Shown here piece after piece: positions 1 through 4,253 of a stretch of DNA of 64,000 nucleotides. Source of the stretch: Trueperaceae bacterium (GTDB lineage Bacteria > Deinococcota > Deinococci > Deinococcales > Trueperaceae); contig DASSXV010000044.1 of the NCBI GenBank assembly GCA_035703635.1, positions 1 through 64,000 on the forward strand. Reading direction: 5' to 3'. The first letter of the stretch is position 1; each line of letters starts with the position of its first letter. Below the pieces are notes generated by a model. It worked only from the letters and a program-made list of their open reading frames with translations, made no database searches and was not told the DNA's origin. A program made the translations under genes and the position numbers.

Positions 1-287
1 GCATCAACGAACGCCGCCACCCCACCAGCAGCCTGCGCCTCAGCCACCACATGCAAAGCCAAAGTCGTCTTACCCCCAGACTCAGGCCCATACACCTCAA
101 CAACCCGCCCCCGCGGCAACCCACCAACCCCCAACGCCACAACAACACTCAAAGAACCAGTAGAAATAACCCCAGACCCCAACACCCCAACCGGCTCAGC
201 CCCCAACCGCATGATCGCCCCACGACCAAACTGCCGCTCAATCTGCGACAAAGCCGCATCCAAGGCCTTAACGCGTTCCTTATCCAT
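1..287 (-). CDS. recA: Recombinase A, N-terminal part (runs off window edge; not in ORF track)
   Basis: Manual translation from ATG 287: [29 protein letters not shown]...ISTGSLS...[45 protein letters not shown]; Walker [14 protein letters not shown] upstream. Confidence 0.97.
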
Positions 288-350
288 GATCCTGCCTCCA
301 GTCGGGCGTGGGCAGGGCGGTGTGCCCGCAACTCCACTACCTCAGTGATA

Positions 351-365
351 CCTTAAATACTAAGG
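351..365. promoter_or_regulatory. AT-rich inverted repeat CCTTA-N5-TAAGG upstream of recA (candidate operator/promoter)
   Basis: Perfect 5-bp arms overlapping TAGTAT/TAAGGT -10-like hexamers on the minus strand. Confidence 0.4.
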
Positions 366-406
366 CACCGGGGTGGGGTCGCGCAAGCGCCAATTGCCTA
401 GAAGCG

Positions 407-1429
407 CTAGGCAGTCAACACCCGTCGTACGGCAGCAAGAACGCGTTGCGCGTCGGGGCGATAGTGGTGCTCGAGCGTGGTGAACGGCGGGTAAGGAGCG
501 TCCCAACCAGCCACCCTGACGATGGGCGCCTCCAAGTAGTAGAGCGCCCCCTCCGCCAGCCGCGCGACGACCTCGGCTCCGAAGCCACCGCTGCGCGGCG
601 CCTCGTAGACCACTACCACTCGCCCCGTGCGTTTGACGGACTCCAAGATGGTCGCCTCGTCTAACGGCACCAACGTCTCGAGGTCGATCACTTCTAGCGC
701 TACGCCCTCGCGGGCCGCGACCTCGGCCGCCTTCAAACACACCTCGACCATGCCGCCGTAACTCACGAGGGTGACGGCGTTACCTGCTCGCACCACGCGC
801 GCCTGCCCAAGGGGGTGGGTGTAGTAGTCGGCAGCGATCACCTCGCGTCGTGAGCGGTAGAGCTTGATGGCTTCGAGGAAGAAAACGGGGTCCGGGTCGG
901 CGATCGCGGCCAACAGGAGTCCCTTGGCGCGCGCAGGCGACGACGGGATGACGACCTTGACGCCAGGCACGCTCGCCAACACGCCCTCAGGTGAGTCGGC
1001 GTGTTGCTCAGGCGTGTGAACACCGCCTCCGTAAGGTGCGCGCACGACGACGGGCAGCGAGAAGCGGCCGCGCGTGCGGTGCCGGTAACGGCCGAGGTGC
1101 GACATGATCTGGTCGAGAGCGGGGTACAAGAAGCCAGCGAACTGGAGCTCGGCAACCGGCCGCATGCCGCCTAGCGCTAGGCCGATCGCGAGCCCCATGA
1201 TGCCTGACTCCGCCAACGGCGTGTCGAAGACGCGCTCGGGTCCGAAGCGTTCCTGAAGCCCGTCGCTGGCGCGAAAAACGCCGCCGAGCAACCCGACGTC
1301 CTCGCCGAAGAGGAGCGTGGTTGGGTCGCGTTCAAGGGCGAGGGCCAAGGCGTCGTTGATGGCCTGCACCATGGTCACGCCCGTCTGCGCACGGTCTGGG
1401 AGCGGCGTAGTGGCAGCTTCAGGCGCCAT
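407..1429 (-). CDS. pdhB: 2-oxoacid (pyruvate/branched-chain family) dehydrogenase E1 beta subunit
   Basis: [32 protein letters not shown] motifs; ATG 1429 overlaps end of the alpha gene; substrate not determinable. Confidence 0.9.
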
Positions 1430-2447
1430 CGAGGGCCTCCATGGCACGGCGCTGGTCCGGCCACGGCTCCGCGAACACGTGCTCGACGATGCTGACGGCT
1501 CGCGGTTCAGGCGTGGCGTCGGCCACCGCCAGCGCCGCGCCCAGCTCCTCGTCCAGTTCGGCCATGAACGCCGTTTCGCGCTCGACGTCCCACAACCCGC
1601 GCGCCGACAAGACGGCACGCAGCCGGCCAAGCGGCTCCTCCGCCTCACGCCTTGCCGTCTCCACCTCGTCGCGATAACGGTGCGGGTCGTCGCTGGTGGT
1701 ATGGGGCGCCAAGCGGTAAGTCACCGCCTCGATGAGGGTCGGCCCGTCGCCCGCCCGCGCACGAGCGACGGCGGTCCGGGCCGTTACGAGGCAGGCCACG
1801 TAATCGTTGCCGTCGACCCTCACACCCGGCATGCCGTAACCAAGCGCACGGTCAGCAACGCGCACGTTGGCCATCTGACGCTCCGTCGGCACGCTGATGG
1901 CCCAGCCGTTGTTTTGCACGACGAACACCACTGGCGCGCGGAGAACGGCCGCGAAGTTGAGCGCTTCGTGGAAGTCCCCCTCACTAGTGCCGCCATCACC
2001 CACGTACGCCATCACGACCCACGGCTCGCGGTGAAAGCGTCCGGCAACGGCGAGCCCGACCGCCTGGGGCAACTGCGTGGCGATCGGGATGTAGAAAGGC
2101 AGGACCCGCACGTCCTCCGGGTAGCGCCAACCCTCGGCGTGCGCCCGCCAATAGAGCACGAGTTGACTTAGCGGCAGGCCGTGGGTGAGGGCGGCAGCGC
2201 TCTCCCTGTAGCTCGGCACAAGCCAATCGTGCGGGGCGAGCGCCATCGCCGTTCCGACCTGGGCGGCCTCCTGGCCGCGGTACGGGGCGTAAACCCCAAG
2301 CCGACCCTGGCGCTGCAACACCACCGCACGCTCGTCGAAGTGGCGCGCACGCGCAACGGCCTTGTAACCGGCCAGCAGTTCTTCGTCACCGAGCGGCAAC
2401 GAGCCAGCGACCTCCCCGTTAGCGGGAACGAAGCGGACCGTATCCAT
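1419..2447 (-). CDS. pdhA: 2-oxoacid dehydrogenase E1 alpha subunit
   Basis: QRQGRLG, GQEAAQ, TPP motif [15 protein letters not shown]...QNN, YR..HTTSDDP. Confidence 0.9.
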
Positions 2448-2778
2448 TGGCCCCTCCCTACCTGCCGCCGGTAGTCACACGACCAGGTGCATCCGAACTG
2501 GCGCACCTCGGGTAGGTACCCGCGGCCACGAATCAGTAACGTCAAGCTACCGCGAGTCGGCCCGCGAAGGCAGCCTCGCGCGCACGGTGAGGGTCGGCGC
2601 GAGCTCGCGCGTGACGATGCGCGGCGCCGTAGCGACGGCGCTGACTTACGCGCTAGGCGCGTTGTCCTGCGCCGCGGCAGGGTGAGTGTTCCGCGGCGCC
2701 ACCTGTGTACTTTCCCGCGGTATCACGTGACCTCGACGCCCGCGCGGCCACTGCCGTTGCGGTAGCGTGACAGGCACG

Positions 2779-3726
2779 ATGACCGAGGTGCAGGCCGCTC
2801 AACGAGCTGCGGCTTTCGAGGCGCGCATCGCTGCGGGCGAGAAGATCGAAGCTGGCGACTGGATGCCGGACGAATACCGCCGCCAGCTCATCCGCATGAT
2901 CGGGCAGCACGCGCACAGCGAGTACGTCGGCATGCTTCCCGAGGGCGCCTGGATTGACGCGGCCCCAACCCTCAGGCGCAAACTCATCCTAGTGGCCAAG
3001 GTCCAGGATGAGGCCGGCCACGGACAGTACCTCTATCACGCTGCGGAAACGCTGGGCGCTACCCGCGCCGAGATGCTCGACGCCTTGCTCGAAGGCCGCG
3101 CCAAGTACTCCTCCGTCTTCAACTACCCTACGCTCACCTGGGCCGACGTCGGCATGATCGGGTGGCTAGTCGACGGCGCAGCCATCAAGAACCAGCTGAT
3201 GCTCGCCCAATGCTCCTACGGCCCGTACTCGCGAGCGATGGTGCGCATCTGCGCCGAGGAGACGTTCCACCACCTGCAAGGCCGCGAGATGATCCTGACG
3301 TACGCCTCCGGAACGCCGCACCAGCGCGCCATGGCGCAAGACGCCCTCGACCGCTGGTGGTGGCCCGCGCTCATGATGCTAGGACCGCACGACGCAGACT
3401 CGCCGAACTCCCCGCAACTCAAGGCGTGGCGCGTGAAGACCAAGAGCAACGACGAGGTGCGCCAAGAGTTCCTCGACGAGCACGCACCAGAACTACTGGC
3501 GGCCGGACTCACCATCCCGGACGACGACCTGCGCTTCGACGAGGAAACCGGCCACTGGCGCCACGGACCGATCGACTGGGCGGAGTTCTGGCGCGTAGTG
3601 AAGGGCGACGGACCGTGCAACGCGGAGCGCCTCGCCGCGCGCAGGGCCGCGCACGACGACGGCCGCTGGGTGCGTGAAGCGCTCGCAGCGCACGCCGCGC
3701 GCGCGTCGCAACGGGCAAGCGAATGA
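2779..3726 (+). CDS. paaA: Phenylacetyl-CoA 1,2-epoxidase catalytic subunit A
   Basis: [32 protein letters not shown] di-iron motifs; ATG 2779 (GTG 2767 alternative). Confidence 0.96.
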
Positions 3727-4253
3727 CGGTCGACGGTCAGCTCCCCCGCTGGGAGGTCTTCAAGCAAGACGCCAGCAGCAAGGCGCACGCTGCCGTGGGC
3801 TCGGTTCACGCCGCAGACGCAGAGCACGCGCTGCTCATGGCCCGCAGCGTGTTCGCGCGGCGGCCTTCCGCCGTGAGCTTGTGGTTGGCCCCGCGCTGGG
3901 CGGTGCATGAGTTCACGCGTGAGCAACTAGCGGAAGCGCTCGCGACCCCAGGCACGCAGCTGGCGGCCCCCATGCGCTACCGCGTCTTCATCAAGTCCTC
4001 CGATCGCCGCAGCATGGCGGCGTACGAGCACAGAGGAGAGGTAGTCGCCAGCGGCACGAGCGCTGCCTTGCGGGCGGCCACGCCAGACGAGCTGCCGCTC
4101 GGCGTGTGGCTCGTCGAGGACGCGGCCGTCATAGCAAGCGCCCCAGCTGACGCCGAGGCTTGGTTCGCGCCGGCCAGCGACAAGCGCTACAAACAGCAGT
4201 CTGAGTACGCCGTTAGCGTCAAGCGCCACCCTGCAAGGCGCGAGGGGTCATGA
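3723..4253 (+). CDS. paaB: Phenylacetyl-CoA epoxidase subunit B (long form, apparent tandem PaaB domain)
   Basis: WEVF...[18 protein letters not shown]...SLW; ATGA overlap with paaA. Confidence 0.9.

Follow-up and report, generated by a model that had tools for sequence, protein, structure and literature searches.

The DNA analysed here, referred to as the window, is a stretch of 64,000 nucleotides, i.e. the first 64 kb of contig C56 in the genome of a Trueperaceae bacterium (G000; 88 contigs, 2.9 Mb). It starts inside a recA gene on the minus strand, the codons of which end almost exclusively in G or T. The features at the start of the window are the following.

3..287, minus strand: recA copy 'a', the N-terminal 95 codons in an open frame, with the ATG at 287..285 and the gene running off the contig start (MDKERVKAL...AAFVD)
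1..268, minus strand: tract common to both recA copies (gene-conversion tract), 267 of 268 bases being the same in contig C36
1..263, minus strand: skewed segment, beginning near codon 9 (TTG) and reaching the contig end, with G or T in the third positions except in ATC and TTC
269..287, minus strand: copy-specific first 6-7 codons, unskewed (ATG GAT AAG GAA CGC GTT; in the C36 copy ATG GAA GAC CAG CGC AAG)
288..420, minus strand: leader/promoter region of recA 'a', without keto (G/T) skew in the composition profile

The gene had been taken for recA in a sequence-only reading of the window, and this assignment holds: the translation matches positions 1-87 of 262 of the Pfam profile RecA (PF00154) with 117.9 bits (cut-off 27) and contains the Walker A motif GPESGGKT. 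Our recount of the codons also gave the same numbers as that reading, i.e. 90 of the 95 codons end in G or T (third bases G 53, T 37, C 4, A 1) and leucine is encoded by TTG in 9 out of 9 occurrences. The codons with other endings are GAA, CGC, GCC, ATC and TTC. The sense strand of the fragment consists of 45% G, 30% T, 14% C and 10.5% A, and in the skewed segment the sense strand carries 42 G-runs per kb, the antisense strand none.

Deviation of recA from the genomic background

The skew was expressed as GT3, i.e. the fraction of codons ending in G or T. The genomic background was a set of 2537 greedily chosen, non-overlapping open reading frames (ORFs) of at least 90 codons, in which the recA ORF is displaced by a longer antisense ORF. 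The GT3 of this set has a mean of 0.436, a standard deviation (sd) of 0.059 and a maximum of 0.71, and the ORFs with the highest values resemble wrong-strand frames. At the genome mean, the probability of finding at least 90 out of 95 codons with G or T at the end is 1e-26. With 90/95 as against a maximum of 0.71, recA is an outlier in the per-gene comparison, as the sequence-only reading had led us to expect, and the deviation is strand-specific. Among 57,603 sliding segments of 200 nt the two most keto-skewed are C56:1-200 (-0.57) and C36:1-200 (-0.56), i.e. the starts of the two recA-bearing contigs; the next value is 0.43 and the sd is 0.087. Other genes of G000 have a low GT3 (GroEL 0.28, rpoBC 0.39), and so do 61 recA genes of other phyla (0.46 +/- 0.07, maximum 0.63; 62 readable of 80 fetched loci, minus one family member). 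The strand bias is stronger than in any case of a bacterial protein gene known to us.

The opposite extreme is found outside the window, in a collagen-like protein of 513 codons (C4:6067-7605, plus strand) with a GT3 of 0.16 and many C-runs. This low value stems from the repeat codons (G-P-Q/G-E-R triplets); the C-terminus of the protein is tail-fibre-like.

Two copies of recA

The start of contig C36 (C36:1-287) is the start of a second recA gene. It agrees with C56 in 267 of 268 bases, after which the N-termini differ (MEDQRKK... vs MDKERVK...) and the upstream DNA is unrelated. The sole mismatch within the tract, at position 142, changes an amino acid (Val in C56, Asp in C36). Two C-terminal pieces of recA lie at C30:12489-12677 (minus strand, at the contig end) and at C82:3-161 (plus strand), and have exactly 141 bases in common. 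The middle of recA (about 580 bp) is missing from the G000 assembly, as is nearly all of tuf. The outward contig ends are perfectly identical over exactly 141 nt (C56:1-141 = C36:1-141, the end of C30 = the start of C82, and the start of C29 = the start of C86), which looks like the largest k-mer of the assembler at a collapsed repeat. Only three groups of outward ends are common to more than one contig in G000, namely the 5' part of recA, the 3' part of recA and the 3' part of tuf. In other words, C56 breaks inside a two-copy recA repeat, so that the suspicion of duplicates at the contig end proved justified. We note that the G000 bin is 97.65% complete and yet broken at recA and tuf, and that many sister metagenome-assembled genomes (MAGs) lack these marker genes or break at them.

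The complete genome G003, from the same genus, has both recA loci with flanks that are syntenic with C56 and C36. Its copies lie at 589.5 kb (plus strand) and 835.4 kb (minus strand) and have 991 bp in common with 99.7% identity; copy-specific sequence is limited to a few codons at the start and 11-15 at the end. The identity of the coding tract between G000 and G003 is about 94-95%. Contigs of three independent sequencing runs (X1, X11 and X15) span positions 240-608 or more of the window, while short contigs cover 210-269. In one run a shared unitig has the C36 base at 142, and in X11 and X15 a loose end at 269 leads into the C36 flank. At least half of the words are present in 17 runs. Contigs from RNA libraries cover 240-900 and leave 1-210 uncovered, the depth of such contigs saying nothing on expression. 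The synteny of G003 together with the bridging contigs rules out a mis-joined read, which the sequence-only reading had considered.

Concerted evolution of recA in the family

The closest named relative of the RecA protein is from a Trueperaceae MAG. Among 128 genomes of the family recA typically occurs twice per genome. In all 23 genomes with two assembled copies the pairs are 94.7-100% identical over 935-1019 nt, and in the RecA tree the copies pair by genome. The duplicates thus occupy two loci with different flanks and are more alike within than between genomes, as is typical of concerted evolution: the recA pair is kept alike by gene conversion throughout the family. We found no report in the literature of a two-copy recA kept alike by gene conversion in a whole family.

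The skew is also a property of more than one genome. In the window's genus the GT3 of recA is 0.79-0.95, as against 0.33-0.57 in other families of the order. Skewed recA genes are found in the genera g1, g14, g15, g17, g25, g27, g30, g33 and g40, and a weaker skew in g26. In the unskewed genera the silent sites of recA are C-rich, like those of GroEL in G000. The comparison with relatives suggested by the sequence-only reading therefore revealed the same skew in at least 10 genera of the family. Import from a skewed replicon, which the same reading had listed as a possible cause, is at odds with this persistence and with the fact that RecA is nested in the family. Its other proposal, repeated conversion between recA copies, fared better, since the skew sits inside the tract that is common to the two copies.

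Distribution of the skew along recA

At the four-fold degenerate sites of skewed recA genes the frequency of C is 0.00-0.05 (0.11-0.15 in G008 and in genus g40) and that of A 0.00-0.01, while G amounts to 0.60-0.95 and T to 0.04-0.30. The unskewed or MutS-bearing relatives have 0.41-0.78 C at these sites. In the window's genus T is relatively frequent (0.20-0.30 at four-fold sites) and the two-fold pyrimidine sites mostly carry T. The description as a C-to-T pressure, given in the sequence-only reading, is thus inadequate: most of what the four-fold sites have gained is G (0.68-0.95; T 0.04-0.30), and they have lost A along with C. Codon counts pooled over 25 genomes show the same tendency.

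Ala: GCG 649, GCT 71, GCC 18, GCA 1
Leu: TTG 546, CTG 66
Asp: GAT 288, GAC 50
Ile: ATC 241, ATT 48
Phe: TTC 146, TTT 46

It is conspicuous that the leftover C is located in otherwise weak codons, which call for a strong third base (ATC, TTC). The GC content of third positions (GC3) is 0.56-0.78 in the skewed genes, down from about 0.8-0.9. Codon positions 1 and 2 have also moved to G and T, the share of G and T in the first position having risen from 0.53-0.57 to 0.61-0.69. G-runs are dense on the sense strand (32-49 per kb) and rare on the other (0-6 per kb), as compared to 13 per kb on either strand for the genome on average. The predicted folding of the skewed messages is weaker than that of 25 background ORFs (-0.33 to -0.37 vs -0.458 +/- 0.034 kcal/mol per nt).

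In all nine two-copy genomes the skewed segment of recA lies inside the homology tract and begins 1-10 codons after the start of the tract. In G003, for instance, the skew covers codons 12-308 of 351 and the homology codons 10-336. Along the gene there is a gradient from 5' to 3': the skew is strongest in the 5' two-thirds (95-100% at alignment columns 20-180) and fades towards the 3' end. The 23-92 codons downstream of the skewed segment, copy-specific tails included, have a GT3 of 0.32-0.53. The leader is unskewed, and so is rny, which follows one of the recA copies, is probably on the same transcript and, in G003, overlaps the recA stop with its start. The 15 in-tract differences between paralogues comprise 9 losses of G/T, 1 gain, 3 neutral and 2 unknown cases, a count in which polarisation by distant relatives is biased to losses.

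Two candidate causes were rejected. A Chi-like or other specific motif is not apparent: in 10 genes, the enrichment of 5- to 7-mers over synonymous-codon shuffles never exceeds about 2-fold, and the homologous positions of these genes are non-independent. Replication strand was rejected because the two copies of G003 are inverted and, with an origin near dnaA, would share a replichore; one would then be co-directional with replication and the other head-on, and yet both have the same sense-strand skew. The GC skew of the G000 genome is weak (mean |0.018| per contig).

The tuf genes show the same skew

A second duplicated gene behaves like recA. The first 45 codons of EF-Tu, at C36:42445-42581 (contig end), all end in G or T (45/45). 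The starts of C29 and C86, which form a pair of common outward ends, are the 3' ends of two tuf copies, so that both contig-breaking repeats of G000, recA and tuf, are skewed. Contrary to the sequence-only reading, the skew is not confined to one locus, given the second recA copy at C36:1-287 and the tuf start on the same contig. Among full-length tuf genes of the skewed genera, 22 out of 25 have a GT3 of 0.91-0.99, the exceptions being G094 (0.77, twice) and G095 (0.65). Typically 5-15 of their 405 codons end in C and 0-3 in A. In other genera the GT3 of tuf is 0.36-0.58, with intermediate values in G133 (0.65), G085 (0.72), G044 (0.81) and G062 (0.88). The tuf pairs are 97.1-100% identical, their homology coincides with the ORF within 4 nt, and the skew extends from one end of the ORF to the other but not beyond. 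Across the skewed recA and tuf tracts of the family, GT3 is 0.7-0.99 and C makes up about 1% of the four-fold sites.

The skew thus belongs to the converting duplicates rather than to recA as such. The sequence-only reading had pointed to tuf as a multicopy gene worth comparing, and this comparison, in which the skew turned out equal or stronger, proved decisive. As tuf is skewed like recA, explanations that derive from the function of RecA are removed. The skew of tuf, the unskewed tails of recA and the normal composition of GroEL and rpoBC, taken together, also remove explanations that apply to whole transcripts or to all highly expressed genes. The idea that the known preference of RecA for GT-rich single-stranded DNA makes the gene a substrate of its own product therefore fails as the primary cause, since tuf behaves alike; the preference may nevertheless help to set the strand polarity.

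Genome G086, which has both NucS and MutS, presents a mixed picture. Its tuf genes (L220 and L264) have a GT3 of 20-55% in the first half and of 80-90% in the last third, and its recA is strongly C/A-ending (GT3 0.22, and 0-10% in the 5' part).

Extra copies were found in two genomes: a third recA with an in-frame TAA in the MutS-bearing G053 (G053:C1:2391043-2392072) and a third tuf with an in-frame TAG in the skewed G093 (G093:C36:3192-4403). Such decaying copies could reveal the speed at which the skew is lost after conversion stops.

Mismatch repair genes and the skew

The prediction that NucS is involved was fixed before the repair genes were searched. In profile searches, NucS_C was over the cut-off in 88 and MutS_I in 35 of the 128 family genomes, and the two distributions are nearly complementary. 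Every skewed genus has NucS and lacks MutS, a single match in G007 of the window's genus aside. The 35 genomes typed for both traits are distributed as follows.

MutS absent: 15 skewed, 3 unskewed
MutS present: 0 skewed, 17 unskewed

In G000, the NucS ORF (C34:13648-14403) has both domains (NucS_N 55.2 bits, NucS_C 78.6 bits), and profile searches of G000 and the complete genome G003 for MutS_I and MutL_C found nothing. G000 therefore has the repair genes of a NucS-only lineage. In G133 and G086 both MutS_I and MutL_C are present. The genomes with NucS as well as MutS (G086, G097) are unskewed or intermediate.

NucS-only repair is not accompanied by the skew everywhere. Four MutS-less genomes with a single recA match inside a contig (G031, G033, G050 and G062), in which recA is probably single-copy, have a recA GT3 of 0.36-0.47, and one of them, G062, has a tuf GT3 of 0.88 despite its unskewed, apparently single-copy recA. 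G095 has more divergent recA copies (92% and 81% identity), a recA skew relaxed to 0.52-0.65 and a mildly skewed tuf. Both conversion between copies and NucS-only repair thus seem to be needed. The recA of G085 was left out, as the region holds masked bases.

Outside the phylum, two tuf genes with 99.1% identity are present in G140, a complete actinobacterial genome with NucS and without MutS_I; their GT3 is 0.67-0.68 and they have more G than C. A GT3 of 0.41-0.51, with more C than G, was obtained for four tuf or tuf-like genes from three further NucS-only genomes of actinobacteria. The tuf of G140 suggests the predicted direction, at a modest size and in a single genome.

Among 17 genomes of the window's genus, a MutS_I match was found only in G007 (C81:3220-3555; 136 bits, in a frame of 885 aa). 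This bin is 79% complete with 2% contamination, and the contig may be foreign or represent a real retention.

Other features of the window

An inverted repeat, CCTTA-N5-TAAGG, lies at 351-365 of the window, about 65-80 nt upstream of the start of recA 'a', and is kept in G003 (L028:1417-1431). It may be an operator of the DNA-damage response. The neighbours of recA at 407-2447 (minus strand) and 2767-4253 (plus strand) resemble the E1 beta and alpha subunits of a 2-oxoacid dehydrogenase, and are followed by a phenylacetate-CoA oxygenase-like gene pair. These names were judged from the translations. The composition of all recA neighbours is ordinary.

Possible explanations of the skew

A force that is limited to the conversion tract and beats codon preference resembles, for that reason, biased gene conversion. 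The explanation we favour, with a confidence that is about evenly balanced, is that the skew is due to a strand-asymmetric biased gene conversion between duplicates, filtered by NucS. The role of NucS as the cause, and the choice of the strand that moves, are what we infer from the observed duplication, concerted evolution, extent of the skew and co-distribution with NucS-only repair. About a dozen related genera appear to have lost MutS/MutL and would rely on NucS/EndoMS, which is expected to see only keto-base mismatches (G/T, G/G, T/T) and to be blind to A/C, A/A and C/C. If the antisense strand of the donor pairs with the sense strand of the recipient, for example when gaps in the template strand are filled from the paralogue, then a donor allele with G or T on the sense strand would travel as C or A. 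The resulting A/C, C/C or A/A mismatch would escape NucS and be fixed at the next replication, whereas the opposite allele would give a G/T, G/G or T/T mismatch that would be cut or rejected. Repetition of such events would amount to a selection-like drive that affects transitions as well as transversions and leads towards G and T on the sense strand. This drive would override the preference for C-ending codons seen in recA and tuf of the MutS-bearing relatives, and would be opposed where translation needs C (ATC, TTC). If RecA nucleates better on an exposed sense strand that is richer in G and T, this would reinforce the polarity. The rule itself would be neutral between G and T, and the GC pressure of the genome would then favour G. 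The order observed at silent sites is G >> T > C > A, as the mismatch filter predicts.

The specificity of NucS has been described in other organisms. Cleavage by C. glutamicum EndoMS is limited to G/T, G/G and T/T mismatches (PMC6159521), and M. smegmatis NucS repairs G-G, G-T and T-T on an assimilated oligonucleotide (PMC11551767). Two further reports state that NucS limits homeologous recombination (PMC8228993) and that deletion of nucS in H. volcanii causes a severe defect in gene conversion (PMC11276520). A 2026 preprint on M. tuberculosis includes the remark that recombination-associated repair asymmetries could reshape the composition of paralogous regions (PMC13061034). Beyond this remark, we found no link of NucS to the composition of duplicates or to keto-biased recoding in the literature, supplements aside, and no paper that joins 'Trueperaceae' and 'NucS'.

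Several points weigh against this explanation. The antisense polarity is assumed, and a random polarity would give no net bias; as only two gene families are involved, their same sign could be due to chance (1 in 2). The restriction to G/T, G/G and T/T is carried over by analogy from the NucS of other organisms. The match between skew and tract is inexact at the 3' side, where the recA skew ends 9-71 codons ahead of the homology. Three MutS-less genomes are not clearly skewed (G095 with 0.61-0.65, G139 and G039); in G139 the GT3 of tuf is 0.67 although the copies are 99.8% identical, and G039 also has no NucS match over the cut-off. Conversely, the tuf GT3 is mildly raised in the MutS-bearing G133 (0.65), G085 (0.72) and G097 (0.73). 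The absences of MutS come from incomplete MAGs, G003 excepted, and the single-copy state of recA was called from one in-contig match in MAGs that are 89-96% complete. The tree of a central rpoB fragment is a polytomy at depth, and the approximately unbiased (AU) test on the rpoB fragment weakly rejects a single MutS-less clade (p = 0.033). As there are only two phylogenetically independent supported contrasts, too few for a test, the association of the skew with MutS may reflect few evolutionary events. Finally, the actinobacterial case is weak (0.68) and comes from a single genome.

Strand-specific mutation is an unlikely alternative. A sense strand that is single-stranded in bubbles, R-loops or recombination intermediates would lose C by C-to-U and A by A-to-hypoxanthine deamination, and the process could reinforce itself, as G-rich transcripts form stable R-loops. 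The direction of the skew is that of the classical transcription-associated asymmetry; the 5'-to-3' gradient of recA and the high T content in the window's genus would fit, the sense-strand G-runs would favour R-loops, and the loss of MutS/MutL could alter the mutation spectrum. However, the copy-specific tails, the leader and the probably co-transcribed rny are unskewed, as are GroEL, rpoBC, all other ORFs of at least 90 codons and the apparently single-copy recA of MutS-less genera, and the same observations speak against the single-strand exposure or deamination put forward in the sequence-only reading. Moreover, most former C sites are now G, which requires transversions. The silent C:T ratio has shifted by a roughly estimated 50-150-fold, and a shift of this size would need near-permanent single-strandedness; the factor by which deamination is increased in single-stranded DNA is about 100. 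Selection for a recombination-friendly strand seems to us rather improbable. Here the tract would have been recoded to a G/T-rich, G-run-rich sequence that stabilises RecA filaments or forms G-quadruplex (G4) DNA, so that the repeats would pair or be repaired preferentially, which is the own-substrate idea in another form and is reminiscent of the vls locus of Borrelia. The G and T content of the window fragment, the limitation of the skew to the homologous tract and the density of G-runs, which is above that of vls (27 vs about 0 per kb; PMC3585125), are in line with it, and RecA prefers TGG repeats, from which its dissociation is slowest (PMC3763553). On the other hand, the skew of tuf is stronger than that of recA although nothing ties tuf specially to RecA, homogenisation works equally well in unskewed relatives (98-100% identity in both groups), no oligomer exceeds the shuffles by more than about 2-fold, and the tie to MutS loss and NucS is left unexplained.

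Selection at the level of RNA or translation is very unlikely. A message rich in G and U and poor in C and A might be immune to Rho or to RNases, be less folded, or be read by special stress tRNAs. Depletion of C with enrichment of G is indeed the opposite of a Rho loading site, predicted folding is weaker in the skewed messages, and the C retained in ATC and TTC indicates that translation shapes recA and tuf. But only two duplicated genes are affected, while the chaperone, the polymerase and all other ORFs are not; the recA tails, in the same ORF and message, and the apparently single-copy recA of sister genera are unskewed; and avoidance of Rho does not account for the avoidance of A relative to T. 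That we are dealing with an artefact or foreign DNA, i.e. chimerism at the contig end, a read that belongs to a different organism or a recent import from a skewed replicon, can practically be dismissed. It is true that the fragment lies at a contig end and that the assembly lacks the middle of the gene, but both junctions recur in G003 with syntenic flanks, contigs of three independent runs (X1, X11, X15) bridge the region, 17 runs hold at least half of the words, and the trait occurs in at least 10 genera whose RecA nests inside the family.

NucS-filtered conversion, if it is the correct explanation, would have consequences beyond this family. Keto-biased, strand-asymmetric conversion would be an undescribed force by which strand-exchanging pairs in organisms with NucS/EndoMS as the only mismatch sensor are driven to G and T on one strand, so that essential duplicates would be recoded at silent sites to near saturation; this general form we regard as possible, with a slight lean against it. 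If true and general, its traces should be found in converting paralogues of Actinobacteria and many Archaea. It should also bias amino-acid content, mislead selection tests and phylogenies and break short-read assemblies, and it would offer a natural read-out of strand polarity in bacterial gene conversion, which is otherwise hard to measure. If the link with NucS holds, a biochemical detail, the recognition of G/T-type mismatches, becomes visible as a genomic signature. Whatever the mechanism, there remain a two-copy recA maintained by conversion in the whole family, a near-total loss of silent C and A from one strand of the converted parts of recA and tuf in about a dozen genera, and the coincidence of this loss with the replacement of MutS/MutL by NucS. 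In practical terms, the shift in amino-acid sequence can distort marker-gene trees, and metagenome bins of the Trueperaceae group systematically lack recA and tuf or contain them in broken form.

Comparison with known systems

Transcription-associated asymmetry is an excess of G+T on the non-template strand; it is small, extends over whole transcription units and scales with expression. The skew described here has the same sign relative to transcription, but it is near-saturating, stops within the recA ORF and spares other highly expressed genes, as well as the leader, the tails and rny. GC-biased gene conversion (gBGC) is similar in that it is selection-like, limited to heteroduplexes, arises from unequal handling of mismatches and can override codon preference. 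It differs in favouring G:C on both strands, i.e. G and C should be enriched alike and symmetrically. Here C is removed (about 0.01 at four-fold sites), G increases, T is gained on one strand and rises at two-fold sites, and GC3 falls. As to NucS/EndoMS repair, known from Actinobacteria and many Archaea, both NucS_N and NucS_C are present in our system and the specificity has the same keto/amino split as the skew. The published effects are, however, mutation spectra, replication-strand asymmetry, a homeologous barrier and the gene conversion of one haloarchaeon, and we found no recoded duplicates among them.

Concerted evolution of tuf (tufA/tufB) by gene conversion is known in several phyla including Deinococcus-Thermus, as stated in the survey PMC6053082; recA does not occur in the text of that survey. 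Our duplicates share with known tuf pairs the two loci, a coding region that is near-identical within a genome and divergent between species, and a homology that ends at the ORF borders. Unlike in these, recA is involved as well, in a whole family, and some genera have extreme one-strand G/T tracts. The vls locus of Borrelia is similar in that the sense strand of a conversion locus is densely set with G-runs, which are nearly missing from the opposite strand, and in that otherwise rare codons such as GGG are used (PMC3585125). The skewed recA genes, with 32-49 vs 0-6 G-runs per kb, show this pattern as well (at least about 20 per kb on one strand and practically none on the other). According to PMC3585125, vls is a RecA-independent generator of diversity with one-way transfer from donor cassettes. 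In recA and tuf, by contrast, conversion homogenises functional housekeeping genes, two in number, and T has increased besides G, and both recA copies are full genes with their own ends that are kept alike. Concerted evolution of tuf and gBGC are already known, and our comparison suggests that the keto-biased recoding of duplicates, with its link to NucS, is an apparently undescribed addition to them.

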